From Dehalococcoidia bacterium (GTDB lineage: Bacteria > Chloroflexota > Dehalococcoidia > UBA2979): a DNA stretch of 64,000 nt. Position 1 is the first letter of the stretch. The number at the start of each line of letters is the position of its first letter. Location: contig OZ253555.1 of the NCBI GenBank assembly GCA_965262725.1, forward strand, positions 3,104,001-3,168,000, read 5' to 3'. Position numbers and translations under genes: made by a program. The notes beneath the pieces were generated by a model that worked only from the letters and a program-made list of their open reading frames with translations, did no database searches and was not told the origin of the DNA. Below, piece by piece: positions 14,822 through 56,142 of the stretch.

Positions 14822-16019
14822 CAACGCCGCCGCCGTCCGCCCGCGGAGGGCCGCCTCCTAGTGTCCTGAATTGGAAATGCGATTGAGATATCCGGTGAGG
14901 TTGGTGTGTCCCGAAGTCGAAGGGCGGGTGACGTGATGACGTAACCGGTCTGGAGACATGCTCGTCGTTGCCAGCCGGTGCGAGTCCGGCACGGGTAACT
15001 GTCAGGAGGCCCGTTAGCAGGTCGGCGGCGCGGACGGGAAACGGTCCACGTCGAAGCCCGACGTCAAGAGCCCTATCAGGGGGAGCAACCAGGCGGTCCG
15101 CAGCATCAAGCGAAGCCTGCCGCGTCGTTAACGGATAGTGGAGGAGCCGAGCCCGGCAATTCAGGGCGAAGGCCATGGACGAGGTGAAGATCCTGAATGC
15201 GCGTTGCGCTGCAGCCTCAAGGAACCTCCCGGCGTAAGGGGCGTGGAACGTTTGGAAGGTAGCGACGGGAACGGGAGAAGCCCTCCCCGGCCCGGCACCC
15301 TGCGAGATGGTGTCGGAGCGAGGTGCCCTATAACCGGTCAAAGCCGGGAAGTGGGCAGCTAGCCGGAAGGGTGACGGAGGGGGTCGTAGTACCGCTTGAG
15401 CCGGACGGACAACACAACCGCCGGTGATGGGAAGGACCCCTGCTTTGCTCACGCGTGGGGAGTAGGGATGAATCGGTGAGTGCCCAAGCGGCTAACTCCA
15501 TCCAAGACAAGGTCCGAACACTACAACGCACGCTTTACCGGGCGGCCAAGGCCGACCCCAATAGACGCTTTCATGCGCTCTACGACAAGGTTTATCGCAG
15601 AGACATTCTGGAGCGCGCGTGGGAGCAGGTGCGTCGCAATCGCGGCGCAGCCGGTATCGACGGCGTCACGCTCGCCGAGGTCGAGCGCTACGGCGTGGAG
15701 CGCCTGCTGGATGAACTGGCCACGGAACTGAAGGAGGGAAGCTACCGGGTGCAGCCGAGCCGCCGGGTCTGGATACCCAAGCCCGGTCGGTCGGAAGAGC
15801 GCCCGCTCTCGATTCCTTCGGTCCGCGACCGCATCGTGCAGGCGTCGCTGAAGCTCGTGACGGAGCCGGTCTTCGAGGCCGACTTCCTGCCATGCAGCTT
15901 CGGCTTCCGCCCGAAGCGTTCGGCCCATGACGCCCTGCAGGTCCTCATTGACGAGGCGTGGCGGGGCAGGCGGTGGGTAGTGGAGACGGACATCGCCTCG
16001 TGTTTCGAGTCGATACCGC

Positions 16020-16881
16020 GTGCGTCCGGAAGTCGAAGGGGTGGTGACGTGATGACGTGACCGGTCCGGAGACATGCTCGTTGCTGCCAGCCGGTGAGAG
16101 TCCGGCACGGGTAACTGTCAGGAGGCCCGTTAGCAGGTCGGCGGCGTGGACGGGAAACGGTCTGCGTCGAAGCCCGACGTCAAGAGCCCTATGAGGGGGA
16201 GCAAACGTGCGGTCCGCAGCATGACGCGAAGTCTGCCGCGCCGTGAGACTCGCCTGTCTATTGACAGGACCAAGGAGGAGCCGAGCCCGGGTGGTCAGGG
16301 CGAAGGCCATGGACGAGGTGAAGATCCTGGAATGCAGCCTCAAGAAACCTCCCGGCGTATGGGACGTGGAACGTACGGAAGGTAGCGACGGGAACCGGAG
16401 AAGCCCTCCCCGGCCCGGCACCCTGTGAGAGGGCGTCGGAGCGAGGCGTCCTATAACCGGTCAGAGCCGGGAAGTGGACAGCCAGCCGGAAGGGTGGCGG
16501 AGGGGGTCGTAGTACCGCTGGAGCCGGACGGACAACATAACCGCCGGTGATGGGAAGGACCCCTACTTTGTCCGTGCATGTTGCTGGGGGTGTGGACTGG
16601 TGAGTGCCCCTCGGGGCTAGCAACCACTTGGTAGGGTTCGAGGCTCTCCGCACATGCTGTACCGGCTGGCCAAGGCACGACCCACGTTGTGGGGAGCGCT
16701 GCATGCCATCTGGTGAAGGGCATCGGTGAGCCGGATGAGGGAGAACCTCACGTCCGGTTCGATGTGGCAGGGGCTGGAGACGGACGCTGCTATGGCCGTG
16801 GAGTTGGGCACCACCGGGAAACCGGCTTGGAACTGATGCGCCACCGCCTACGGCTCGCACCGCGCCAGCCCCTGACCCTAC
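16020..16881 (+). mobile_element. ORF-less group II intron (inner), copy 1, 862 nt
   Basis: 5' GTGCG, DV at ~16728-16761, 3' ...ccctAC; excision restores the in-frame RT sequence FESIP(c|ac)HDRLM. Confidence 0.93.
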
Positions 16882-17347
16882 ACGACCGTCTGATGACGGC
16901 CGTCGAGGAACGGATATGCGACCGCAATCTCCTGAAGCTGGTACGGGCGATGCTGCGTGCCGGTGTGATGGAGTCGGGGGTCGTGCAGCACAGCGCGACG
17001 GGTACGCCGCAGGGCGGGGTGATGTCCCCGCTGCTGGCCAATGTCTACCTGCACCGGTTGGACCGGGACTGGGAGGCGAAGGGTGATGGCGTGCTGGTGC
17101 GCTATGCGGATGACCTCGTGGTGCTCTGCCGGAGCCGGGAGGAAGCGGAGCGGGCGTTGGCCCTGCTGCGTGACCTGCTGGGTGAGCTCGGACTGGAGCT
17201 CAAGGCGGAGAAGACGCGCATTGGGAATGATGCTCTGAATTGGCCCCACCTGGAGCCGTTTTGATCCTTTGAATTGGCCCCACCCCCGACCCATCCAGGA
17301 CCTACGCTCGGGTGACTGCATGACTCCCGGAGCGAGGGAAGAGGAGT

Positions 17348-18982
17348 GTGTCGAGAGTGGAGCTGTTCGAGTCTATCCGACGGATGGCGAGGGAGGAGGA
17401 GCTGTCGATCCATGAGCTGGGACGCCGGCATGGCGTGCACCGGCGCACGGTGCGGCAGGCTCTTGGGTCGGCGATACCCCCGGAACGCAAGCAGGCGACC
17501 CGCGTGGCCCCGAAGCTCGGGCCGTACGTCTCGGTCATCCGGGGCTGGCTCGTGGACGACCTCAGCGCGCCGCGCAAGCAGCGGCACACGGCCCGGCGCA
17601 TCTGGGAGCGCCTCGTCGACGAACACGGGGCGACGGTGGCCGAGCCCACGGTCCGCGCCTGCGTCGCGCGCCTGCGTCGCGAGATCCAGGGCGGGCGCGC
17701 GGTTGTGACGATCCCGCAGGTCCATCCTCCCGGCGAGGAGGCGGAGGTCGACTTCGGCACGGTGACGGTGTGGCTGGAGGGCGTCGAGACCCGGCTGGCG
17801 ATGTTCGTGATGCGGCTCTCGCATTCGGGGCGGGCGGCGCACGTCTGCTTCGTCGGCGAGGGCCAGGAGTCTCTGCTCGAGGGGCACGTGGTCGCCTTCG
17901 AGCGGCTCGGCGGAGTGCCGCGGCGCATCCGCTACGACAATCTGACGGCGGCCGTCACCACCGTGCTGCAGGGACGCGAGCGCCTGCAGACCGAGCGCTT
18001 CATCGCGCTCCGCTCGCATTACGGCTTCGACAGCTTCTTCTGTGAGCCCGGCATCGAGGGCGCGCACGAGAAGGGCGGTGTGGAGGGCGAGGTCGGCCGC
18101 TTCCGCCGGCGGCACTTCGTGCCGGTCCCGAAGGTGGCGACCCTCGGCGAGCTGAACGAACGAGTGCGGGAGGCGGACCGCACCGACGACGCCCGGCACA
18201 TCGAGAGCCGCCTCGCCACCGTCGGCGAGATGGGAGAGAACGAGAAGGCCTCGCTGCGTCCGCTTCCGGCGGAGCGCTTCGACCCGTCAATCCCGCTGCG
18301 CGCGAAGGTCGACCGCAAGGCGCGCATCGCCGTGCGTAGCTCCCGCTACTCGGTCCCGGCGGCCTATGCAGGCCGGAAGCTGGACGTGCGGCTGTCCGGG
18401 AACAGCCTGACCGTGTGGGCCGAGGGGCGTGAAGTCGCCCACCACGAGCGCAGCGCCCGCACCGGAGCAGAGGTCCTGCTGCTCGACCACTATCTGGAGG
18501 TGCTCGCGCGCAAGCCCGGGGCGGTCCCGGGCTCGGTGGCGCTCCAGCAGGCGCGTGCGAAGGGACACGTCACAGCCGAGCATCAGCGCTTCTGGGACCG
18601 CGCCCGCCGCAAGCTCGGCGACCGCGCGGGCACGCAGGCGTACATCGAGGTCCTGCTCCTGCATCGCCATCTTCCCTTCACGGCGGTGCACGCCGCGCTC
18701 GGGACGGTCAACAGGATCCAGTCGGTGAACCCCGAACTGGTCGCCATCGAGGCGCGCCGTCTCGCCGACCGCAGGCCACCAGACGCCGCCGTCGAGAGAC
18801 CGCACCTGGAGCGCTACGACCGACCTGCCCCGCTCCTCGATGGCTACGATGCGCTGCTCTCGGGTGATTCCCGATGGCCCGGCACGTCGCCGGGCGGGCG
18901 CTCCCGCGCTCCGCGGTCTGCCGAGAACGCGTCGCACACCACCACAACCGCCGTCACCGCTGCGGTGTCGACGGCACGCTGA
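17348..18982 (+). CDS. istA: IS21 transposase IstA
   Basis: PRKQRHTARRIWERL, PGEEAEVDFG, RYDN, HEKGGVE, YSVP. Confidence 0.95.
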   Translation: MSRVELFESIRRMAREEELSIHELGRRHGVHRRTVRQALGSAIPPERKQATRVAPKLGPYVSVIRGWLVDDLSAPRKQRHTARRIWERLVDEHGATVAEPTVRACVARLRREIQGGRAVVTIPQVHPPGEEAEVDFGTVTVWLEGVETRLAMFVMRLSHSGRAAHVCFVGEGQESLLEGHVVAFERLGGVPRRIRYDNLTAAVTTVLQGRERLQTERFIALRSHYGFDSFFCEPGIEGAHEKGGVEGEVGRFRRRHFVPVPKVATLGELNERVREADRTDDARHIESRLATVGEMGENEKASLRPLPAERFDPSIPLRAKVDRKARIAVRSSRYSVPAAYAGRKLDVRLSGNSLTVWAEGREVAHHERSARTGAEVLLLDHYLEVLARKPGAVPGSVALQQARAKGHVTAEHQRFWDRARRKLGDRAGTQAYIEVLLLHRHLPFTAVHAALGTVNRIQSVNPELVAIEARRLADRRPPDAAVERPHLERYDRPAPLLDGYDALLSGDSRWPGTSPGGRSRAPRSAENASHTTTTAVTAAVSTAR

Positions 18983-18998
18983 CCACAGGAGGCACCCG

Positions 18999-19781
18999 AT
19001 GACAGCACCCCTCACCGACCAGGCCGCGGAGCTGACAATCGAGGCGATCTGCCGCGAGCTCCGTCTCCCCACCGTCAGGAAGCAGGCGCTCCCGCTCGCC
19101 GAAGCCGCGGTCCGAGACCGGATCACCCATCTGGGCTATCTCGCCGAAGTGCTGGGAGCCGAACGCGATGACCGTGAGGAGCGGCGCCGTCAGCGCCGTA
19201 TCGTCGAGGCGCGGTTCCCGCGTTTCAAGTACCTCGCCGACTTCGACCTCGAGGCGGCGCCGACAGTCGACGCGCCGGCGCTCGCCACGCTGGAGCGCTG
19301 CGACTGGGTCGAAAGGGGCGAGCCCGTCGTCCTGCTCGGTGACAGCGGCACCGGGAAGTCACACCTGCTCATCGGCCTCGGCATGGCCGCCTGCCACCTG
19401 GGGCTGCGCGTGCGGTACATGACCACGGCCGCCCTGGTGAATGAACTGGCCGAAGCGTCGGATGATCGCGCGCTCTCACGCCTCGTCGCCCGCTACGGCC
19501 GCCTCGACCTGCTCTGCCTGGATGAGTTCGGGTACGTCCACCTCGACCCGCGCGGTGCCGAAATGCTGTTCCAGATCCTGACCGAGCGCGAGGAACGGGC
19601 ATCGGTCGCCGTCGCCTCCAACTCCCCGTTCTCCGAGTGGGGCCGCATCTTCACCGACCCTCGTCTCGCCGCGGCCGTCGTTGACCGCCTCACCTACCGT
19701 GCCCATATCATCGAGACCGGCACCGAGTCCTACCGGCTCCGGGCCTCGACCTCCCCGAGAGGAGGTGCCCCAACGACCTGA
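18999..19781 (+). CDS. istB: IS21 helper ATPase IstB
   Basis: GDSGTGKSH, LLCLDEFGY, SN..FSEW, AVVDRL, ESYR. Confidence 0.95.
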   Translation: MTAPLTDQAAELTIEAICRELRLPTVRKQALPLAEAAVRDRITHLGYLAEVLGAERDDREERRRQRRIVEARFPRFKYLADFDLEAAPTVDAPALATLERCDWVERGEPVVLLGDSGTGKSHLLIGLGMAACHLGLRVRYMTTAALVNELAEASDDRALSRLVARYGRLDLLCLDEFGYVHLDPRGAEMLFQILTEREERASVAVASNSPFSEWGRIFTDPRLAAAVVDRLTYRAHIIETGTESYRLRASTSPRGGAPTT

Positions 19782-20035
19782 TCCCGGTCCCCGGGGGTGG
19801 GGCCAGATCAGAGGATCAAAGTGGGGCCAGATGTAAGCATCATTCCCACGCGCATCGTGCACCTGCGGGAGGGAGGCGAGGGGCTGGAGTTCCTCGGCTT
19901 CGAGCATCGCTGGGTACGTGCGAAGCGCAACAAGAATATCCAGTTCCTCGCACGCTGGCCCTCACGGCGAGCGATGCAGCGGGCGCGGGACCGCATCCGT
20001 GAAATCACGGCGCGGTTGCGTCTGCTGCTGAGTCC

Positions 20036-21453
20036 GGTCACGTCCCGGCAAGTGGTGTCACTGCGCATCATCCTTATCATTTGTTAGCCGGCAGCCTGCA
20101 GCAGCACCTCCTTGCCTGACGTGAGCTCACTCCCCGGCGGGGAGAGCAGCGTCATCATCGTCATGTAGCGCCGCCCCACGGCCCACTCGTCGTGCTGCTC
20201 GGAGAGCACCGCACCGATGAGCCGGATGACCGCTGAGCGGTTGGGGAAGATGCCGACCACGTTGGTGCGCCGGCGGATCTCCTTGTTGAGCCGCTCCTGG
20301 GGGTTGTTCGACCAGATCTGCCGCCAGTGCGCCACCGGGAAGGCCGTGAACGCCAGGATCTCCTCCGCGGCGTCGGCGAGCATTGCCGCGGCCTGCGGGA
20401 AGCGCGCACCGAGCTGCTCCACGACCCGCGTGTGCTGGGCGTGCACCTCGGAGGCCGAGGGCTGCTGGTAGATGGTGCGCACGGTCGTCGCCACCAGCGC
20501 CTCGGCGCTCTTCGGCACGCGTGTGAGCAGGTTCCGCATGAAGTGGGTACGGCAGCGCTGCCAGGAGGCGCCGCCGAAGACGGTCGCGATCGCTCCCCTC
20601 AGGCCCTGGTGGGCGTCGGAGGTCACCAGCTCCACGCCGGAGAGCCCTCGTGCTACGAGGCCGCGGAGAAATGCCAGCCAGAAGGCCCCGTCCTCGCTGG
20701 TACCGACGTCGATGCCCAGCACCTCGCGCTTCCCCTCCACGTTGACCGCGGTGGCGACGACGACGCTCACCTGGGCGATGCGGCCCTCCTCGCGCACCCG
20801 CTGGGTGAGCGCGTCGAGCCAGAGGTATCGGTAGGGGCCGGAGTCCAGGGGCCGGCCGAGGAAACTTGTGACGACCGTGTCGAGCTCCGAGCAGATACGC
20901 GAGACCTGGCTCTTGGAGATGCCCTCGCAGCCGAGCGAGCGCACGAGGTCGTCGACGCGGCGAGTGGAGACGCCCTCCACGTACGCTTGCTGGACGACGG
21001 CTAGCAAGGCGCGCTCTGAGCGGCGCCGGGGCTCGAGCAGCGCCGGGAAGTAGGACCCCTGGCGGAGCTTCGGGATCTGCAGGTCGATGCTGCCCACCCG
21101 CGTGTCCCAGCGTCTTTGCCTGTAGCCGTTGCGCCGGGTGGTGCGCATCTCGCTGCGCTCGCCGTAGCCGGCGCCGACCTGCGCCGAGACCTCCTGGTCC
21201 ATGACCGCCTCGGCGAGCACAGCCACCGCTTCGCGCAGGAAATCGAGGTCAGCTCCCGATGCCTGCTTGCGGAGCAGTTCCAACACGTCCACGCTCTCTC
21301 TGACCACCGTCGTCCTCCTCCACGTTCGTCATAACTTCGTGAAGGATGATGCGGTGGTCTCTTACGTCCACCTGCATGGGCACCGTGGTCGGTAGTAGGT
21401 CCCCCTGCGGAGACCGTCTCCCCGCCTGTGACACCACTTGCTGGGACGCTACT
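20036..21453 (-). mobile_element. IS256-family element (1418 bp)
   Basis: 26-bp IR (22/26) ggtcacgtcccggcaagtggtgtcac; 8-bp TSD CTGAGTCC (20028-20035 and 21454-21461). Confidence 0.95.
20084..21307 (-). CDS. IS256-family transposase
   Basis: RNGYR, IPKLRQGSYFP, GVSTRRV, WLDA, SDAHQGL, WQRCRTHF, NPQERLNKEIRRR. Confidence 0.95.
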   Translation of the reverse strand: MVRESVDVLELLRKQASGADLDFLREAVAVLAEAVMDQEVSAQVGAGYGERSEMRTTRRNGYRQRRWDTRVGSIDLQIPKLRQGSYFPALLEPRRRSERALLAVVQQAYVEGVSTRRVDDLVRSLGCEGISKSQVSRICSELDTVVTSFLGRPLDSGPYRYLWLDALTQRVREEGRIAQVSVVVATAVNVEGKREVLGIDVGTSEDGAFWLAFLRGLVARGLSGVELVTSDAHQGLRGAIATVFGGASWQRCRTHFMRNLLTRVPKSAEALVATTVRTIYQQPSASEVHAQHTRVVEQLGARFPQAAAMLADAAEEILAFTAFPVAHWRQIWSNNPQERLNKEIRRRTNVVGIFPNRSAVIRLIGAVLSEQHDEWAVGRRYMTMMTLLSPPGSELTSGKEVLLQAAG

Positions 21454-22040
21454 CTGAGTCCCCGGCAGGTCGTGGAGGAAGTCAATCGCTACCTCCGCGG
21501 CTGGATGAGCTACTTCCGCTACGGCAACTCGGCGAGGGCGTTCGACGTCCTGCACTGGTTTGCCATGTGGAGACTCAAACTCTGGCTGGGGAAGCGGTTG
21601 CGTTGGCGGCGACGCCATCGCGGGCACCCGTTTCCCGTCGCCGACCGTCTGGGGCTCATCTCGCTAGCTGGACAGCGCGTCGTGGCACCACGGCCATATC
21701 GACCGTGGCGGGGCACCCCGCATGCCGCCCGGTGAAGGGCATCGGTGAGCCGGATGAGGGAAAACCTCACGTCCGGTTCGAGGCGGCAGGGGCTGGAGAC
21801 GGACGATGCTACGGCTGTGGAGATGGGCGCCACCGGGAAACCGGCCTGGCAATATGCGCCACCGCCTACGGCTCGCACCGCGCCAGCCCCTGACCCTACT
21901 CAAGGATCTGGTCCGCGGACTTGTGCCAGATGAAGCGCCTCCGGTGCTCGTTTCCAGTTGCGACCCAAGCCTCCACTGAGCGGACCAGGCCTGCGAGGCT
22001 CGGTGCGATTGTTTTCAGCATTTGCAACTCGGGACACTAG

Positions 22041-27560: not shown

Positions 27561-27662
27561 GCCGATCAGTGGCTGGTCTAGTGTCCTGATTCGTAATAGC
27601 GACAGATAACGGGTATGGTGGCACAGCGGGGTTTTGCCCCATGGGGCAGACTCTGGAGTGTC

Positions 27663-28715
27663 ATGAGCACCCGAATCGGACGGCCGACGGTCGCGATCGT
27701 CCTGAGCGACGAGGAGCGTGAGACGCTGGAGCGGTGGGCGCGCCGGCCGACATCGGCCCAGGCGCTGGCGCTGCGCTGTCGCATCGTCCTGGCAGCGGCC
27801 GAGGGGACATCGAATAAAGCGATCGCCGCGGCGCTCGATTGCCATCCGGTCACCGTCGGCAAGTGGCGCCGGCGCTTTGCGCAGGGGCGGCTCGATGGGC
27901 TACAGGATGAGCCGCGCCCCGGGGCGCCGCGCACGATCGCCGATGCACAGGTGGAAGCGGTGATCGTCACGACGCTGGAGGAGCAGCCTCCCAACGCGAC
28001 GCACTGGTCGACCCGATCGATGGCAGCCGCGGTCGGGATGTCGCAGTCGGCGATCTTCAGGATCTGGCGCGCCTTCGGCCTGAAGCCGCACCTCGTGGAG
28101 AGCTTCAAGCTGTCGCCCGACCCGCAGTTCATCGACAAGGTGCGCGACGTGGCCGGGCTCTATCTCAACCCGCCCGACGCGGCGGTTGTGCTGTGCGTGG
28201 ACGAGAAGACCCAGATCCAGGCACTCGACCGCACCGCGCCGACGGTGCCGATGATGCCCGGCGTCCCCGCCCGCCAGACGCACGACTACATCCGTCACGG
28301 CACGACGAACCTCTACGCGGCGCTCGATGTCGCCTCGGGATGCGTGATCACGGAGATGACCCCCCGGCACCGGGCTCGGGAGTTCCAGCAGTTCCTCGCC
28401 CTCATCGACCAAAGCGTTCCCCGTGAGCTGGCGGTGCATGTCGTGCTCGACAACGTCTCCACGCACCGCACGCCCGCCATCCAGCGCTGGCTCCAGCGCC
28501 ATCCCCGCTTCACCTTCCATTTCACGCCGACCTACAGCTCCTGGATGAACCTCGTGGAGCGCTGGTTTGCAGAGCTCACCAGCAAGTGGCTCCGGCGCGG
28601 CACGCACCATAGCGTCCCTGATCTGATCCGCTCAGTGGAGATGTGGGTCGCCAGCTGGAACGAGAATCCGAGGCCCTTCATCTGGCACAAGTCCGCGGAC
28701 CAGATCCTTGAGTAG
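27663..28715 (+). CDS. IS630 transposase, C-terminally truncated by the antisense intron (native tail DNLAGYLERIPESGH* at 31647-31692)
   Basis: HTH region, THWSTR, CVDEKTQIQA, DYIRHGT, VLDNVSTH, PTYSSWMNLVERWF: DDE triad intact. Confidence 0.92.
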   Translation: MSTRIGRPTVAIVLSDEERETLERWARRPTSAQALALRCRIVLAAAEGTSNKAIAAALDCHPVTVGKWRRRFAQGRLDGLQDEPRPGAPRTIADAQVEAVIVTTLEEQPPNATHWSTRSMAAAVGMSQSAIFRIWRAFGLKPHLVESFKLSPDPQFIDKVRDVAGLYLNPPDAAVVLCVDEKTQIQALDRTAPTVPMMPGVPARQTHDYIRHGTTNLYAALDVASGCVITEMTPRHRAREFQQFLALIDQSVPRELAVHVVLDNVSTHRTPAIQRWLQRHPRFTFHFTPTYSSWMNLVERWFAELTSKWLRRGTHHSVPDLIRSVEMWVASWNENPRPFIWHKSADQILE

Positions 28716-28875
28716 GGTCAGGGGCTGGCGCGGTGCGAGCCGTAGGCGGTGGCGCATATTGCCAGGCCGGTTTCCCGGTGGCGCCCATCTCCACAGCCGT
28801 AGCATCGTCCGTCTCCAGCCCCTGCCGCCTCGAACCGGACGTGAGGTTTTCCCTCATCCGGCTCACCGATGCCCT

Positions 28876-31075
28876 TCACCGGGCGGCATGCGGGGTGCCC
28901 CGCCACGGTCGATATGGCCGTGGTGCCACGACGCGCTGTCCAGCTAGCGAGATGAGCCCCAGACGGTCGGCGACGGGAAACGGGTGCCCGCGATGGCGTC
29001 GCCGCCAACGCAACCGCTTCCCCAGCCAGAGTTTGAGTCTCCACATGGCAAACCAGTGCAGGACGTCGAACGCCCTCGCCGAGTTGCCGTAGCGGAAGTA
29101 GCTCATCCAGCCGCGGAGGTAGCGATTGACTTCCTCCACGACCTGCCGGGGACTCAGCAGCAGACGCAACCGCGCCGTGATTTCACGGATGCGGTCCCGC
29201 GCCCGCTGCATCGCTCGCCGTGAGGGCCAGCGTGCGAGGAACTGGATATTCTTGTTGCGCTTCGCACGTACCCAGCGATGCTCGAAGCCGAGGAACTCCA
29301 GCCCCTCGCCTCCCTCCCGCAGGTGCACGATGCGCGTCTTCTCCGCCTTGAGCTCCAGTCCGAGCTCACCCAGCAGGTCACGCAGCAGGGCCAACGCCCG
29401 CTCCGCTTCCTCCCGGCTCCGGCAGAGCACCACGAGGTCATCCGCATAGCGCACCAGCACGCCATCACCCTTCGCCTCCCAGTCCCGGTCCAACCGGTGC
29501 AGGTAGACATTGGCCAGCAGCGGGGACATCACCCCGCCCTGCGGCGTACCCGTCGCGCTGTGCTGCACGACCCCCGACTCCATCACACCGGCACGCAGCA
29601 TCGCCCGTACCAGCTTCAGGAGATTGCGGTCGCATATCCGTTCCTCGACGGCCGTCATCAGACGGTCGTGTAGGGTCAGGGGCTGGCGCGGTGCGAGCCG
29701 TAGGCGGTGGCGCATCAGTTCCAAGCCGGTTTCCCGGTGGTGCCCAACTCCACGGCCATAGCAGCGTCCGTCTCCAGCCCCTGCCACATCGAACCGGACG
29801 TGAGGTTCTCCCTCATCCGGCTCACCGATGCCCTTCACCAGATGGCATGCAGCGCTCCCCACAACGTGGGTCGTGCCTTGGCCAGCCGGTACAGCATGTG
29901 CGGAGAGCCTCGAACCCTACCAAGTGGTTGCTAGCCCCGAGGGGCACTCACCAGTCCACACCCCCAGCAACATGCACGGACAAAGTAGGGGTCCTTCCCA
30001 TCACCGGCGGTTATGTTGTCCGTCCGGCTCCAGCGGTACTACGACCCCCTCCGCCACCCTTCCGGCTGGCTGTCCACTTCCCGGCTCTGACCGGTTATAG
30101 GACGCCTCGCTCCGACGCCCTCTCACAGGGTGCCGGGCCGGGGAGGGCTTCTCCGGTTCCCGTCGCTACCTTCCGTACGTTCCACGTCCCATACGCCGGG
30201 AGGTTTCTTGAGGCTGCATTCCAGGATCTTCACCTCGTCCATGGCCTTCGCCCTGACCACCCGGGCTCGGCTCCTCCTTGGTCCTGTCAATAGACAGGCG
30301 AGTCTCACGGCGCGGCAGACTTCGCGTCATGCTGCGGACCGCACGTTTGCTCCCCCTCATAGGGCTCTTGACGTCGGGCTTCGACGCAGACCGTTTCCCG
30401 TCCACGCCGCCGACCTGCTAACGGGCCTCCTGACAGTTACCCGTGCCGGACTCTCACCGGCTGGCAGCAACGAGCATGTCTCCGGACCGGTCACGTCATC
30501 ACGTCACCACCCCTTCGACTTCCGGACGCACGCGGTATCGACTCGAAACACGAGGCGATGTCCGTCTCCACTACCCACCGCCTGCCCCGCCACGCCTCGT
30601 CAATGAGGACCTGCAGGGCGTCATGGGCCGAACGCTTCGGGCGGAAGCCGAAGCTGCATGGCAGGAAGTCGGCCTCGAAGACCGGCTCCGTCACGAGCTT
30701 CAGCGACGCCTGCACGATGCGGTCGCGGACCGAAGGAATCGAGAGCGGGCGCTCTTCCGACCGACCGGGCTTGGGTATCCAGACCCGGCGGCTCGGCTGC
30801 ACCCGGTATCTTCCCTCCTTCAGTTCCGTGGCCAGTTCATCCAGCAGGCGCTCCACGCCGTAGCGCTCGACCTCGGCGAGCGTGACGCCGTCGATACCGG
30901 CTGCGCCGCGATTGCGACGCACCTGCTCCCACGCGCGCTCCAGAATGTCTCTGCGATAAACCTTGTCGTAGAGCGCATGAAAGCGTCTATTGGGGTCGGC
31001 CTTGGCCGCCCGGTAAAGCGTGCGTTGTAGTGTTCGGACCTTGTCTTGGATGGAGTTAGCCGCTTGGGCACTCAC
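28876..31075 (-). CDS. ltrA: Group II intron RT/maturase (445 aa, no endonuclease domain), split into exons 31075-30532 and 29669-28876
   Basis: 544+794=1338 nt, open after inner-intron splicing; RT motifs including YADD and X domain; GTG start inferred. Confidence 0.92.
29670..30531 (-). mobile_element. ORF-less group II intron (inner), copy 2, 862 nt
   Basis: Reverse complement of 16020-16881, with the same length and insertion site. Confidence 0.93.
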
Positions 31076-31836
31076 CGATTCATCCCTACTCCCCACGCGT
31101 GAGCAAAGCAGGGGTCCTTCCCATCACCGGCGGTTGTGTTGTCCGTCCGGCTCAAGCGGTACTACGACCCCCTCCGTCACCCTTCCGGCTAGCTGCCCAC
31201 TTCCCGGCTTTGACCGGTTATAGGGCACCTCGCTCCGACACCATCTCGCAGGGTGCCGGGCCGGGGAGGGCTTCTCCCGTTCCCGTCGCTACCTTCCAAA
31301 CGTTCCACGCCCCTTACGCCGGGAGGTTCCTTGAGGCTGCAGCGCAACGCGCATTCAGGATCTTCACCTCGTCCATGGCCTTCGCCCTGAATTGCCGGGC
31401 TCGGCTCCTCCACTATCCGTTAACGACGCGGCAGGCTTCGCTTGATGCTGCGGACCGCCTGGTTGCTCCCCTGATAGGGCTCTTGACGTCGGGCTTCGAC
31501 GTGGACCGTTTCCCGTCCGCGCCGCCGACCTGCTAACGGGCCTCCTGACAGTTACCCGTGCCGGACTCGCACCGGCTGGCAACGACGAGCATGTCTCCAG
31601 ACCGGTTACGTCATCACGTCACCCGCCCTTCGACTTCGGGACACACCAACCTCGCCGGATATCTAGAGCGCATCCCTGAATCGGGACACTAGGAGCGGTC
31701 GGAACAGTTGCGGATGAGCGCCTTGCTCTCTGGTACCTAGTGCTTGCAGTCGATCCCCGCTCGGCGCGCTGCCAAACGCACCATGCGCACGCCACTCCAC
31801 CTGTTCAGACGATCCCTACGTCGCCGCCTGCCCGCC

Positions 31837-32250: not shown

Positions 32251-32778
32251 CTAGTCGAAGCTGGTGAGGATCACAGGGCGCGCATGCTCCGCGAAGCCCT
32301 CCGCGCGCAGATAGGTCGGCGTCGTGCGAAAGAGGAGCCGCGTATAGCTCGGGTCATGCGGATGCGCGTCGCCCTGTCCGGTGGCCGCCTCGCGGCGGCG
32401 GAAGAAGTCGGCGACCTCCTCCGGATCCTCGATCAGCTCGGCGGTGCCAGCGACCCAGACGTTCTTCGTGTACCCGAGTGACATATACGGGGGCCCCTCG
32501 GCGTCGATGAAGAGATAGCCCACGGTCGGATTGTTGCGGACGTGCTGCACCTTGACCTGGTGGTGCTGGCTGATGGTCCCGATCGTCCAGCCCTCGACGA
32601 AGGTGGAGACGGGGCGCATCACCGGCGTGCCGTTTCGGCGCAGCGTCATCAGGAACGAGAGCGTCCCCGCATGGTACCTCGAGATGAAGGCGCGAATCTC
32701 CTCGCGGAGCGACTCCCCCGTCTCGGCGCCGACCGCCTTCTCCCCATCCCACACGCGGCCCAATCGCTGCGATGTCAT
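32251..32778 (-). CDS. Pyridoxamine-5'-phosphate-oxidase-like split-barrel protein (paralog 3)
   Basis: LMTLRRNGTP..RPV, K..HVRNNPTV, G.AELIED. Confidence 0.75.
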   Translation of the reverse strand: MTSQRLGRVWDGEKAVGAETGESLREEIRAFISRYHAGTLSFLMTLRRNGTPVMRPVSTFVEGWTIGTISQHHQVKVQHVRNNPTVGYLFIDAEGPPYMSLGYTKNVWVAGTAELIEDPEEVADFFRRREAATGQGDAHPHDPSYTRLLFRTTPTYLRAEGFAEHARPVILTSFD

Positions 32779-32825
32779 GCTCGGTTCCTCTCCCTGCCCG
32801 CCAGGCGGGCCCACCTCGGACTCCG

Positions 32826-33359
32826 CTACGCCGCCGGGACCGGCTCCGGGAACTCGCGCAGGATCACGGCCCGCATCGGCTCGCCCGGGGAGAAGCCCTC
32901 GGCGCGGACGTACTGCGGCCGCGTACGGATCAGGATGCGCCGGTAGCTCTGGTCGGTCGGGTGCGCGTCGCTGCGGCCGGTCGCCGCCGCGCGGCGCTCG
33001 AAGAAGGCCGCCACTTCGTCCGGATCCTCGACCAGCTCCGCCACGCCCTGCATCCAGACGTTGCGCGGGAACTCGAGCCGGCCGTAGCGCTCGCCGTCGA
33101 CCTCCACCCAGAGGTAGCCGACGATGGGGTCGCGGCGCACGTGCGTGGTCTTCAGGTGCAGGTCCTGCGTGATGGTGTTGGCCGTCCACCCCTCGAGGAA
33201 GCTCCCCACCGGCCGCATGATCTCGCGACCGTCCCGGCGCCTAGTCATCAGGAATGCCCGGTTCTGGCTCCAGTTCGCGATGAAGGCGCGGATCTCCTCG
33301 CGGAGGGCGTCGGCATCGGCGGCCGGCACCTCGCGTTCGCTGTCGTAGGTCTCGCCCAC
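32826..33359 (-). CDS. Pyridoxamine-5'-phosphate-oxidase-like split-barrel protein (paralog 2)
   Basis: LMTRRRDG...RPV, K..HVRRDPIV, G.AELVED. Confidence 0.75.
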   Translation of the reverse strand: MGETYDSEREVPAADADALREEIRAFIANWSQNRAFLMTRRRDGREIMRPVGSFLEGWTANTITQDLHLKTTHVRRDPIVGYLWVEVDGERYGRLEFPRNVWMQGVAELVEDPDEVAAFFERRAAATGRSDAHPTDQSYRRILIRTRPQYVRAEGFSPGEPMRAVILREFPEPVPAA

Positions 33360-33427
33360 GGCGGTCCCTCCTACACATCGCGCCGGGATGGTCCCGGCCC
33401 CCCGCCCCGGCCCCGAACCGGAAACTC

Positions 33428-33964
33428 TCAGCGCGCCGGGACGAATGCCCCCTCGCGCAGCACGACCGGGTGCAGTCCCTCGGCGAAGCCCTCCGCGCGC
33501 AGATAGCGCGGCGTGACTCGGATCAGGAGCGGCTTCCAGCCCTCGTCGTCCGCGTGCGGGTCGCCGCGGCCGGTCAGCTGGCGCCGATGCTCGTAGAAGT
33601 CGTCGATCTCCCCGCGATCCTCGACGAGCTCGGCGCGTCCCTCCACCCAGACGTTCTTGAGGTGCGGCGCCGGCGAGGTGGTCGTGTACGGCTCAAGTCC
33701 CACGAAGAGATAGCCGACGGTGGGGTCGTGCCGGACGTGCGAGGTCTTGACGTGCACGGCCTGCGTGATGGTGTGGATGCGCCAGCCGTCGACGAAGGCC
33801 GCCACCGGGCGGCTCACCGGCCGCCCGTCGCGGCGGAAGGTGACGAGGTAGGCACAGCGGGCCGATGCGTCTGAGATGAAGCTCTGGATGACGGCGGCGC
33901 GTTCTGAGGCCACCTCGGGCGAGACCTCCCGCTCGCGCTCGTAGACCTCGGCCGCGCTCAGCAT
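33428..33964 (-). CDS. Pyridoxamine-5'-phosphate-oxidase-like split-barrel protein (paralog 1)
   Basis: LVTFRRDGRP..RPV, K..HVRHDPTV, GRAELVED. Confidence 0.75.
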   Translation of the reverse strand: MLSAAEVYEREREVSPEVASERAAVIQSFISDASARCAYLVTFRRDGRPVSRPVAAFVDGWRIHTITQAVHVKTSHVRHDPTVGYLFVGLEPYTTTSPAPHLKNVWVEGRAELVEDRGEIDDFYEHRRQLTGRGDPHADDEGWKPLLIRVTPRYLRAEGFAEGLHPVVLREGAFVPAR

Positions 33965-46025: not shown

Positions 46026-46823
46026 GTGGGGGCGCGACTCGCCGGCGCCTCTCTCCTCGTCCTCCTGATCACCGCCTGCGGAGGCGGCGCGCCAGTGGCC
46101 GACCCCACCGCTCGGTCGACTGCCGCCGTCGGTGACCCGGCCGCCGCGGCGGCGACTCGCCCGCCCACCGTCGTGCCGTCTCCCACCGACACGCCCACCG
46201 CCGTGCCCGCGCCCACCGTCACACCCACGCCCACGCCCACCGCCGTGCCCGCGCCCACCGTCACGCCCACGCCCACGCCCACCGCCGTGCCCGCGCCCAC
46301 CGTCACGCCCACGCCCACGCCCACCGCGGCGCCCACGCCCACCGCGGCACCCGCTCCCCCGGCCAGCCCGATCGCGACGGCGACGGAGGAGCCAAAGCCA
46401 GCGGAGCGGGTCGCCTCCACGGCGTCGATTCCGACGGCCGAGCTCCCTCGCCTCGAGTTCGTGCGAGCGGACGGCCATGCTGTCTCGCTCGCGGTCGAGA
46501 TCCCGCCGCGCAGCGAATACGGCATCGGGCTCTCCGGCCGCTACGAGCTGGACGAACGCGGGATGCTGTTCCACTACCCGGAGGGGACGAGCATGACCGG
46601 CTTCTACATGCGGAACACGCACATCGATCTCTCGATCGCCTTCGTCGGCCTCAGCGATCGCGTCATCGCCGTCCGCGAGATGGAGGCGGAGAGCCTCGAG
46701 ATCGTGCGGCCGGGCGATGCCTACCGCTTTGCGATCGAGGCGCCGTCGGGCTGGTACGCCGAGCATGGGATCAGCGAGGGGGCACTCCTGCGGCTCCCGT
46801 CGGACATCGTCCTGCCGGAGTAG
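46026..46823 (+). CDS. DUF192-domain lipoprotein with Pro/Thr-rich linker
   Basis: Lipobox ITAC; GLSGR..L..RGMLF, FYMRNT.IDLSIAF, AIEA..GW; start approximate. Confidence 0.8.
   Translation: MGARLAGASLLVLLITACGGGAPVADPTARSTAAVGDPAAAAATRPPTVVPSPTDTPTAVPAPTVTPTPTPTAVPAPTVTPTPTPTAVPAPTVTPTPTPTAAPTPTAAPAPPASPIATATEEPKPAERVASTASIPTAELPRLEFVRADGHAVSLAVEIPPRSEYGIGLSGRYELDERGMLFHYPEGTSMTGFYMRNTHIDLSIAFVGLSDRVIAVREMEAESLEIVRPGDAYRFAIEAPSGWYAEHGISEGALLRLPSDIVLPE
46191..46316 (+). repeat. Three tandem 42-bp coding repeats (TPTAVPAPTVTPTP)
   Basis: Direct reading of acgcccaccgccgtgcccgcgcccaccgtcac(a/g)cccacgccc x3. Confidence 0.85.
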
Positions 46824-51301: not shown

Positions 51302-51432
51302 CGGCGCCCCCCGTCCGCGCGACCGCCGGGGTAGGGGCTCTTGAAGCAAGGGGCCGACGCGAGACGCATCGCCACCCGCGACGCCAGCGCTCGACGCTCC
51401 GCTCTGCCGTGAGAGAGGGGGCCGGGGCCGAC

Positions 51433-51523
51433 GACCGCATCCCTACGCACGTATCAACGTGATCAGGTTCAAGGGGTTGACGGCTCCTGGCCGCCTCTCA
51501 GCCCGCAGGCACCCCCAGCGGTC
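51433..51523 (-). promoter_or_regulatory. TPP riboswitch
   Basis: Minus strand reads gaccgc.GGGGGTGC..GCTGAGA..ACCCCTTGAACCTGATC..GTTGATAC..CGTAGGGA.gcggtc, with P1 closure, upstream of thiB. Confidence 0.93.
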
Positions 51524-51612
51524 ATCCTGATTCACCGGGATCGTGACAGACAGGGCCGCGGGCGGTCAAGGCTGGGCGGCGCCTCGGTCGGACACGTGGT
51601 GGGGCCGATGCC

Positions 51613-55824: not shown

Positions 55825-55865
55825 GCGAGGCTCCGTCGGGCGCCGGGGACCCGCGTGCTACACTC

Positions 55866-55976
55866 GCATCCGTCACGGCGCAGAGCCCGGGGAAGCCGGT
55901 GGGAGTCCGGCGCTGTCCCGCAACTGTGAGCCGCAATCTCCGTCGGAGATCGCGGCGAGCCAGAGCACCGGCCTGT
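55866..55976 (+). promoter_or_regulatory. Cobalamin riboswitch
   Basis: GGGAAGCCGGTG.GAGTCCGGCGCTGTCCCGCAACTGTGA ... GAGCCAGA B12-box core upstream of btuCD-like genes; ends approximate. Confidence 0.9.
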
Positions 55977-56142
55977 GATCGTTATGTCGGCCTGCGAGGA
56001 CAGGCGACGGCTGGCTGTGAGCGTAGCTGCACCCTCGTCCTCGTCGCAATTTGCTGCGTGCCGCGGAGGAGCGCCCCCGCTGGCGAGCGAGGCGTGGGAG
56101 ATGCGGCGTGTCCCACAGCACCCCGACCGGAGGTCGTCGCCC

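Follow-up and report, generated by a model that had tools for sequence, protein, structure and literature searches.

A group II intron without an open reading frame, nested at one codon of the reverse transcriptase gene of its probable helper intron in a Dehalococcoidia genome

The window analyzed here is a stretch of 64,000 nucleotides (nt) from a Dehalococcoidia bacterium (assembly GCA_965262725.1, contig OZ253555.1, positions 3,104,001 to 3,168,000), whose minus strand carries, at window positions 28712–31646, a group II intron with a second group II intron inside its reverse transcriptase (RT) gene. The nested structure is real and can be delimited exactly. The outer intron encodes an RT/maturase and the inner intron has no open reading frame (ORF) of its own; very probably the two form a helper/satellite pair of mobile group II introns that became nested by site-specific retrohoming, a judgement that concerns the structural and evolutionary core of the system and not present-day splicing. 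The source contig (G000:C1) is a single sequence of 3,674,403 nt with 70.6% G+C. The original prediction, which described a mobile twintron whose inner intron parasitizes the gene of its own helper and gates it through a splicing-dependent positive feedback, is partly supported.

The outer intron (28712–31646, minus strand), which belongs to a family called A below and is the second family-A copy in the window, is 2935 nt long and runs from GTGTG to CCCTAC, and the inner intron (29670–30531, minus strand) is 862 nt long and runs from GTGCG to CCCTAC. Both carry the group II termini 5′ GUGYG and 3′ AY, as GTGTG...CTAC in the outer and GTGCG...CTAC in the inner intron. The upstream piece of the RT ORF (30532–31075, minus strand) consists of 181 codons and one further nucleotide, starting from a GTG at 31075 (an alternative GTG start lies at 31096, on the same strand), and the downstream piece (28876–29669, minus strand) consists of two nucleotides, 263 codons and the stop codon, and contains the YADD motif and the maturase (X) domain. 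The inner intron splits a codon (...ATA CCG C|AC GAC CGT..., or FESIP|HDRL). The original prediction had placed an 862-nt ORF-less intron at this very point and a 445-amino-acid RT/maturase with YADD after its removal, and both hold: the insert runs from 30531 to 29670, and joining 31075–30532 to 29669–28879 yields 1335 nt, equal to 445 codons.

The inner boundaries are exact because the outer intron occurs free of the insert in a same-genus genome (G003), as a 2073-nt element that is 86–88% identical and has one continuous ORF of 444 amino acids, reading ...DIVSCFESIPHDRLMAAV... across the insertion point (...CFESIPHDRLM...). The RT is likewise uninterrupted at this site in three loci of a second genome (G008) and in a third (G018), and two contigs of sequencing run X7, which comes from another study and is probably DNA, contain the joint 29669→30532, at which exactly 862 nt are skipped. 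The outer boundaries correspond to the gap relative to 14 empty sites in insertion sequences (IS) of the IS630 family in the source genome, which read straight across, and the joint 28711→31647 is found in contigs of runs X1 and X7, with short sides of 27 and 19 nt. As in a twintron, the inner intron lies wholly within the outer one, and the boundaries are set by uninterrupted homologues.

Two details of this copy can be recorded here. It measures 2935 nt, whereas at least five other clean copies measure 2936 nt, and the difference resides in domain I at 31459 and 31467, where a G-run has one G fewer and one base is changed; X1 contigs show only the majority form at these positions, the predicted helix is unbroken in the window copy, and the difference is either a private mutation or an assembly slip. 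In addition, an open frame at 28876–29862 (minus strand) starts from a GTG at 29862 within the inner intron and runs in frame into the downstream RT piece, for 328 amino acids. Gene callers on this and other assemblies report a 279-amino-acid version starting from an ATG at 29715 (P0001 and P0139), which would lack RT motifs 0–3; the frame is probably an accident of the 70% G+C composition.

The two ORF pieces complement each other precisely. The Pfam RVT_1 profile is matched above its cut-off at positions 1–83 by the upstream piece and at positions 84–204 by the downstream piece, so that the matches abut at 83|84, and the downstream piece also matches GIIM above cut-off (53.3 bits). The NCBIfam profile TIGR04416 is matched at positions 2–137 upstream (172.4 bits) and 140–352 downstream (214.5 bits), each piece alone being below the cut-off of 300, while the uninterrupted G003 homologue reaches 396.6. 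No endonuclease domain was found in the RT/maturase among the Pfam and NCBIfam profile matches. Over 444 codons, the comparison of family A with the G003 homologue yields a ratio of nonsynonymous to synonymous substitution rates (dN/dS) of 0.24, and the RT gene has therefore been under purifying selection over most of the A–G003 divergence. Among the family-A copies, two RT haplotypes exist, with R or S at one residue, and both carry the inner intron.

The class of the protein was considered separately. Its closest solved structures are RTs of class IIC introns, namely 6ar1 (3e-58) and 7uim (6.6e-58). IIC introns have no second exon-binding site (EBS2) and target sites behind a hairpin or a terminator. 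Assignment to bacterial class C is ruled against by the pairing between EBS2 and the second intron-binding site (IBS2), which is present and covarying, even though the nearest structures are those of IIC RTs. A review likewise describes a different target specificity for IIC introns (PMC4424553). Bacterial class D (RmInt1-like) proteins have the C-terminal motif LX3AX3PXLF[V/A]HW, as given in a study of Sinorhizobium introns (PMC4615759); this motif is absent from the C-terminus ...RHRGHPFPVADRLGLISLAGQRVVAPRPYRPWRGTPHAAR, and the class was rejected.

Both introns are recognizable as ribozymes. The Rfam model of group II domains I–IV (RF02003, cut-off 49) scores 91.8 bits for the outer and 102.8 bits for the inner intron, and the model of domains V/VI (RF00029, cut-off 40) scores 41.5 bits for the outer intron and falls just short of the cut-off for the inner one. 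Domain V occupies 28832–28864 in the outer and 29791–29823 in the inner intron (both minus strand, from RF00029), and the two versions differ at one base. Domain VI is unusually long in both, at ~115 nt after domain V; in the outer intron, it occupies 28712–28829 (minus strand), where a basal helix, in which the A at 28718 (7 nt from the 3′ end) is bulged, is accompanied by an insert of ~90 nt. The basal helix with its bulged A seven bases from the 3′ end is common to both introns, and it covaries between family A and a second family, B.

The homology of the two ribozymes, which had been proposed from the window alone, is clear: at the 5′ end, 562 nt are 86.5% alike, and at the 3′ end, 181 nt are 91.7% alike. 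Domains I–III of the inner intron are 90.3% alike to those of family A, which is its closest relative. The inner intron follows the sequence of the outer one as far as the region of the start codon and takes it up again ~10 codons before the end of the ORF, and it is thus an A-like intron from which the ORF has been cleanly deleted. It also retains the base of domain IV, beside the start codon; in other group II introns, this base is the main protein-binding site. A tblastn search with both RT pieces found no RT sequence inside the inner intron. There is thus no RT ORF in its domain IV, and a related intron that encodes an intron-encoded protein is present in the same genome, as befits an ORF-less satellite.

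Structural constraint was assessed on an alignment of the first ~550 nt of family A, the inner intron, family B, G003, two copies from G008, and G018, which are 77–98% alike. The RNAalifold consensus of these seven sequences comprises 155 pairs, 21 of them with compensatory double changes, and the inner intron forms 153 of the 155. At 16 pairs the inner intron differs from family A, and 14 of these are still paired, six through changes on both sides. The predicted consensus is supportive of the inner intron being a maintained ribozyme and not debris.

The alignment contains two short variable places, and elsewhere the lineages are alike. The first is the first exon-binding site (EBS1), a 5-mer in the loop CCCGG-NNNNN-CAGGG that can pair with the last four to five bases of the intron’s own 5′ exon in six lineages: CAAUU with GGUUG in A, GUGGU with ACCGC in the inner intron, ACCCU with GGGU in B, GGAAU with UUCC in G003, GGGAU with AUCCC in G008, and UCCCU with GGGA in G018. 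The second is EBS2, ~25–45 nt upstream of EBS1, with a partner in the exon 9–15 nt upstream of the insertion site in five lineages (CGGAUA with UAUCCG in A, GACUCG with CGAGUC in the inner intron, GAGUCC with GGACUC in B, AGCCA with UGGCU in G003, and UGGUG with CACCA in G018); no convincing exon partner of EBS2 was found for G008 in the alignment. In the window, EBS1 of the outer intron (CAATT, 31390–31394, minus strand) pairs with GGTTG at 31647–31651, and its EBS2 (CGGATA, 31414–31419, minus strand) is complementary to TATCCG at 31656–31661 in the IS630 5′ exon.

The corresponding loops of the inner intron match the RT gene that it interrupts. Its EBS2 (GACTCG, 30299–30304, minus strand) is carried by an 18-nt stem-loop that is absent from the outer intron and is complementary to IBS2 (CGAGTC, 30540–30545, minus strand) in the RT codons. 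Its EBS1 (GTGGT, 30256–30260, minus strand), which is the variable 5-mer of the CCCGG-NNNNN-CAGGG loop, pairs with IBS1 (ACCGC, 30532–30536, minus strand) at five of five positions, one of them a G–U pair, so that the homing site in the RT codons offers 11 of 11 possible pairs. Ten of the 12 solo inner sites elsewhere in the genome score at least 9, and seven score at least 10; among 200,000 random genome positions, 4% reach 9 and 0.5% reach 10. The solo sites share the pattern TCGAG, then 6–7 nt, then CYGC|. This complementarity and the shared pattern indicate that the inner insertions arose by an RNA-guided route and not by duplication of a DNA segment.

The census of the source genome reveals how far this arrangement has spread. 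Family A has 12 copies (99.7–100% identical), each of which carries the inner intron at one and the same codon; six of them form clean units of 2935 or 2936 nt, one has a doubled inner intron, and five have extra insertions of ~1.2–2.6 kb. In each of the three copies of family B, which is 77–82% identical to A, the identical inner intron has entered at this codon too, and further insertions are present. The inner intron is present in 28 copies that are 99.9–100% identical, 15 at the RT site, one as a second copy head to tail, and 12 solo (one of them interrupted); this near-identity and the possession of its own target-recognition loops bear out the proposal that it is mobile. Its identity in families A and B implies at least two independent invasions, and the family-A copies, which differ at no more than 3 positions in 1115 nt, are too alike to decide whether the outer intron moved with the inner one inside or was invaded copy by copy. 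An uninterrupted RT site was not found in the source genome in a search with up to 4 mismatches in 26 nt, nor was a continuous A- or B-type RT found there by tblastn, so that none of the 15 helpers is uninterrupted.

A third family (C), with 36–41% protein identity, has 13 copies with domain V/VI signals, in most of which the RT is continuous. Across the whole genome, there are 59 domain V/VI matches (E ≤ 0.01), which consist of 12 from family A, 27 from the inner intron, three from family B, 13 from the third family, and four others. Thermosynechococcus has 28 intron copies, about half as many as the signals found here. The original prediction did not mention this 13-copy family with uninterrupted RT genes, the IS630 host of the outer intron, or the two IS elements in the first nested copy of the window. 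It stated that the nested unit occurs twice; the other unit does exist (14904–21899, plus strand, with the inner intron at 16020–16881), but the count holds for the window only, the genome having 12. This other unit is broken by two IS elements in its RT ORF, each with an 8-bp duplication: an IS21-family element with istA/istB (17222–19847, plus strand; IstB_IS21, 205.7 bits) and an IS256/Mutator-family element (20036–21453, minus strand; Transposase_mut, 441.2 bits).

The host of the outer intron in the window is an IS630-family transposase gene (DDE_3; 27615–28711, plus strand), in which the intron is inserted antisense, 15 codons before the stop; the tail of the transposase, NLAGYLERIPESGH, continues at 31648–31692 up to the stop. 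Each of the 12 family-A units is inserted in an IS630-family element, always at this point and antisense to the transposase gene; of the 26 such sites in the genome, 12 are occupied and 14 empty. Among the occupied elements, the 46-nt 5′ flank exists in at least four variants, and grouping of the flanks at 98% over 246 nt yields 10 clusters, three of which also hold empty copies. Cumulative GC skew is lowest near 0.40 Mb and highest near 2.51 Mb; relative to these positions, 10 of the 12 outer copies and 11 of the 12 solo inner copies are oriented with the G-rich strand of the replichore in which they lie, and insertion thus favors the leading-strand orientation. Sites in the favored orientation are occupied in 10 cases and empty in five, and those in the opposite orientation are occupied in two and empty in nine (Fisher p = 0.021). 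Such a bias, for the lagging-strand template, has been reported for endonuclease-less introns (PMC4615759). The differing IS630 hosts, the orientation bias, and the orientation-dependent occupancy argue for retrohoming into pre-existing IS copies and not for transposition of IS630.

Both uninterrupted helpers and the nested arrangement are found in other assemblies. Outer copies lacking the inner intron, which the original prediction had suggested looking for, are absent from the source genome but present in G003, G008, G018, run X7, and the protein P0002. This protein (445 amino acids, from a 61.5-kb contig of another assembly) equals the joined window pieces except for the start residue and one R/W change, and its 90% cluster has 51 members, many of 442–445 amino acids, from several assemblies; uninterrupted A-like helpers are therefore common outside the source genome. 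ORFs in which 15 residues from the 3′ end of the inner intron run into HDRLM... occur on contigs of other assemblies (P0001, and P0003 at 89% identity), and the same nesting therefore exists beyond the source genome. A continuous 442-amino-acid B-type RT (P0028), which differs at a few residues from the three interrupted B copies of the source genome, is located on a contig of 3,674,387 nt that is not the source contig, being 16 nt shorter; it may represent a sibling assembly with a different intron configuration.

Searches with stretches of the inner intron itself gave little. A 24-nt stretch of its EBS2 stem-loop had no exact match in genome contigs and none in metagenome contigs. Its inner-specific middle part had no match in the 40 related genomes searched, which means that it was not found there and is not proof of absence. 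An 18-nt stretch across its 3′ junction had 27 genome-contig matches, where ~17 are expected by chance as an estimate; none of these loci had intron or RT likeness by blastn and tblastn, and they were set aside.

In the mechanism proposed here, the outer (family A) intron, which encodes an endonuclease-less RT/maturase, would rely on EBS1/EBS2 pairing to home into IS630-family elements at their 3′ end, in antisense to the transposase. The inner intron would be an ORF-deleted offshoot of the outer lineage that kept the ribozyme and the base of domain IV and acquired new EBS1/EBS2 loops. These loops are predicted to pair with the DNA for the RT motif CFESIP|H, which would make the RT gene of the helper the homing site of the inner intron. 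The inner intron has filled this site in 12 of 12 family-A and three of three family-B introns, and would also have jumped to 12 look-alike sites. It is presumably mobilized and spliced by the A/B-type protein, and because none of the 15 helper genes is continuous, this protein could be produced here only from RNA rid of the inner intron. That a full-length RT can be made only after removal of the inner intron had been argued from the window, and it is correct as logic, since all 15 helper copies of the source genome are interrupted. Chances appear to be even that the inner intron is still spliced at some level, with self-splicing as a primer and the maturase as an amplifier.

Several points weigh against the helper/satellite interpretation. 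The role of the A/B protein as helper is deduced from the kinship of the introns and the retained domain IV base, and the genome also has 13 RT genes of another family that are not interrupted. New inner-free outer copies would be expected if the inner intron spliced well and the outer intron moved, unless they were re-invaded at once, and 0 of 15 helpers are uninterrupted. Nine of the 15 helper units are further changed (five family-A units with IS-sized insertions, one with a doubled inner intron, and three of family B), which gives them the look of a graveyard. The RF00029 score of the inner intron, 37.5 bits, is below the cut-off of 40, with a full-length alignment (model 1–77). The consensus pairs were counted on the same sequences that were used for structure prediction and are supportive, not independent; the EBS/IBS assignments and secondary structures come from alignments and predictions and are unprobed; and the origin and terminus are placed from GC skew alone. 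At the RNA level, 24 runs are listed, one of them on record as RNA (X19) and three guessed to be RNA. X19 yielded five pieces, four of them domain-V look-alikes of 33–39 nt and one a 263-nt contig (30118–30380) without differences, at a depth of 2.9, and X20, one of the guessed RNA runs, yielded three pieces, including a 179-nt contig (29890–30068) without differences. No splice joint is present in the X19 and X20 contigs, in which most of the stretch is uncovered and DNA may be present, so that they are uninformative either way.

The same DNA picture is explained about equally well by a dead end, in which the outer intron spread intact to 12 IS630 sites, the satellite then swept all RT genes, and A, B, and the inner intron are now inert; this is a serious possibility, although its chances are put at less than even. 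It agrees with the absence of empty RT sites (0 of 15) against the 14 of 26 IS630 sites that are empty, with the further insertions or duplication in nine of 15 units, and with the identity of the inner intron in two families that are only 77–82% alike. In the Thermosynechococcus study, the finding of identical inner introns within outer introns that had diverged was taken to reflect recent and independent insertion into outer introns after their dispersal (PMC2882425). The lack of decay in the 28 inner copies and in the ORFs of the six clean units means, however, that such a sweep would have to be extremely recent. Group II ribozymes of such type also often keep some self-splicing, which counts against inert elements. 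The splicing-gated positive feedback of the original prediction, in which an active twintron needs inner splicing for its protein and the same protein for its splicing, acts as an ON/OFF switch, and moves as a unit, is unlikely. All 15 helper RTs are interrupted, yet the 28 inner and 12 outer copies are nearly identical, which suggests very recent activity; the ribozyme pairs and the ORF are intact, the inner intron retains the base of domain IV next to the start codon, and a nested group II intron that gates a mobility protein has been shown experimentally elsewhere (PMC4801052). Splicing, maturase dependence, and two stable states are presumed in this reading; the identity of the copies, however, is equally explained by a recent sweep ending in inactivation, and an outer copy without the inner intron is absent from the source genome. 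The stronger form of this idea, an obligate self-gated bistable retroelement that would be silent when its protein is diluted and self-sustaining once primed by rare self-splicing, its 2.9-kb unit homing into IS630 at replication forks, seems rather unlikely.

Other sources of movement or of the nesting itself are less probable. Spread at the DNA level, with IS630 transposition carrying the nested introns or with recombination or gene conversion in place of retrohoming, is improbable: every unit is located in an IS630 element with a seemingly intact end on the 5′-exon side, two pairs of units have identical flanks over 246 nt, and the units at 294827 and 1591326 share sequence beyond the IS end, but the units fall into 10 flank clusters, three of them with empty members, orientation-dependent occupancy (Fisher p = 0.021) is not expected from transposition, and solo inner copies reside in unrelated genes at EBS-matching sites. 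It is also quite improbable that third-family or other RT/maturases splice and mobilize the inner intron, and perhaps the outer, which would leave the interrupted helper genes without a role. Such help could come from the 13 copies with continuous RT ORFs and domain V/VI signals, and relaxed protein specificity among related introns has been described in Thermosynechococcus (PMC2882425) and Sinorhizobium (PMC4615759); the third-family proteins are only 36–41% identical to the A-type protein, in contrast to 72–87% in the cross-help documented in those accounts, and the inner ribozyme is 90% identical to family A. An assembly artefact, in which mis-joined repeats produced the nesting, is extremely improbable. 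The repeats are of high copy number, short-read contigs break at their borders, and no listed X1 or X7 contig spans a whole unit; against this, 12 units with different flanks are present in one 3.67-Mb contig, ORFs running from the inner 3′ end into the RT were called on contigs of other assemblies, and the X1 depth of ~501 for inner-only and ~216–250 for outer-only sequence is in line with 28 versus 12 copies, although depth is not copy number and X1 is maybe the source sample. The helper/satellite pair nested by retrohoming remains the preferred explanation of the structure.

ORF-less introns in the ORFs of their helpers are already known from Thermosynechococcus and Methanosarcina, and the nesting described here belongs to this known kind. 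According to the review of Zimmerly & Semper (PMC4424553), bacterial ORF-less introns are rare and nearly always found beside related introns whose proteins may act in trans, and several bacterial twintrons are known. The precedent in Methanosarcina cited by the original prediction is found in the same review: the introns of Methanosarcina acetivorans home repeatedly into the sequences of other introns (PMC4424553). As described there, both ORF-less and RT-encoding introns home into related introns, forming multilevel nests in non-essential DNA; that system is archaeal, reaches up to five levels, and is balanced by deletions. A nest of three levels is seen in the present genome.

The closest parallel is that of Thermosynechococcus elongatus, in which five TeI4 introns contain the ORF-less intron TeI3 in their ORF, both kinds being spliced and mobilized by the TeI4c protein (Mohr, Ghanem & Lambowitz 2010, PMC2882425). 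As reported in that study, an ORF-less derivative of the helper lineage resides at one conserved site in the helper protein gene, the inner copies are identical, ORF-less copies occur elsewhere, IS elements are targets, and the intron load is high (PMC2882425). In contrast to the present case, the insert in Thermosynechococcus is described as separating the first ATG from the second, which still permits synthesis of the protein when splicing does not occur, and continuous ORFs persist there in two introns (PMC2882425). Here, none of the 15 helpers is continuous and the split codon lies midway through the RT domain, where a bypass is not apparent; the organism has 70.6% G+C, and the endonuclease-less protein is of a different lineage.

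Three further systems share aspects with this one. In Trichodesmium erythraeum, a bacterium whose genome is rich in ORF-less introns, a group II twintron has been shown to splice sequentially in vivo (Pfreundt & Hess 2015, PMC4649490); as presented there, the twintron is in a conserved host gene and not in a helper RT, with no helper/satellite relation at the site (PMC4649490). Sinorhizobium RmInt1 and RmInt2 have an endonuclease-less protein of ~420–445 amino acids and IS targets (RmInt1 in ISRm2011-2), a lagging-strand-template bias, and a protein that acts in trans on ORF-deleted introns (PMC4615759). They differ from the present intron in the class D motif, which is absent here, and the relevant parts of that article do not report nesting in the RT gene (PMC4615759). 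In Chaetomium thermophilum mS1247, experiments have shown that a nested intron gates its host intron's mobility protein (Guha & Hausner 2016, PMC4801052); the host there is a fungal mitochondrial group I intron with an endonuclease, and the nested group II intron is described as independent of the protein that it gates (PMC4801052). In the literature searched, outside which lay Dai & Zimmerly 2003, Simon et al. 2008, and supplements, no genome was found to be reported with all of its helper copies occupied at a catalytic RT motif. What distinguishes the present case is the occupancy of 15 of 15 helpers, the position in the RT core without apparent bypass, the 28 satellite copies and 59 signals, and the three-level nest.

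This nest, at 732582–737446 of the source contig (G000:C1:732582-737446), is all on one strand and contains a 1923-nt element (GTGCG start) in domain V of an inner intron that is itself in a family-B RT gene; the element has its own RT, 38–42% identical to that of A, and a domain-V-like hairpin. Another family-A unit (G000:C1:548384-552181) has two inner introns head to tail (...CCCTAC|GTGCG..., 549500–551223), comparable to the head-to-tail double insertions reported for RmInt2 (PMC4615759). The head-to-tail junction pairs poorly with the inner EBS loops (6 of 11), so that the extra copy more likely arose through renewed insertion at the original 5′ junction.

Solo inner copies are found in varied surroundings. 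One is located in a third-family RT gene at a different motif (...YESGY|YGFSHGFRPGRS); with the three family-B copies, it answers the suggestion that inner copies be sought in other RT genes. Sense solo copies are situated in an RNase_T/ExoX-like exonuclease, a DUF429 gene, an ABC-2 permease, a large LRR/cadherin protein, and this family-C RT. Another sense copy (G000:C1, 1302815–1303676) is ~18 nt upstream of the likely start of an NAD kinase gene, the only such gene, and could affect its expression. That splicing is implied by a solo copy in an indispensable gene was considered and rejected, the NAD kinase copy being outside the coding region and the other genes not being demonstrably essential. 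Antisense copies lie in genes for a phosphotriesterase-family protein (537614), a HAMP/HisKA sensor kinase (1018206), and an IS630 transposase (381562); being antisense, they cannot be spliced from those mRNAs, and the first two look like plain gene disruptions. The copies at 294653, 1963038, and 2536486 are at sites without annotation.

Elsewhere in the window, a thiamine pyrophosphate (TPP) riboswitch (51423–51526, minus strand, 71.5 bits) and a cobalamin riboswitch (55860–55990, plus strand, 42.4 bits) are both above their Rfam cut-offs. An imperfect repeat at 46110–46391, with offsets of 12, 18, or 30 nt and rich in CCCACG/CCCACC, would encode a Pro/Thr-rich stretch in the frame that reads Pro/Thr codons. 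At 32287–33835, three consecutive units of ~600 nt, 63–80% alike (repeat families D4, D7, and D10), overlap minus-strand ORFs with similar ends and look like tandem paralogous genes.

In this genome, the homing site of a parasite coincides with the catalytic core of the gene on which it presumably depends, and the parasite has reached 15 of 15 copies. The system is thus a natural test of what follows when a satellite saturates its helper, namely the extinction of both or survival through splicing. It also offers a compact set of parts, consisting of an 862-nt ribozyme, a 445-amino-acid protein that also exists uninterrupted in nature, and targeting loops of 5–6 nt. With 59 signals in 3.67 Mb and three levels of nesting, it is a useful case for the proliferation of introns in non-essential DNA.

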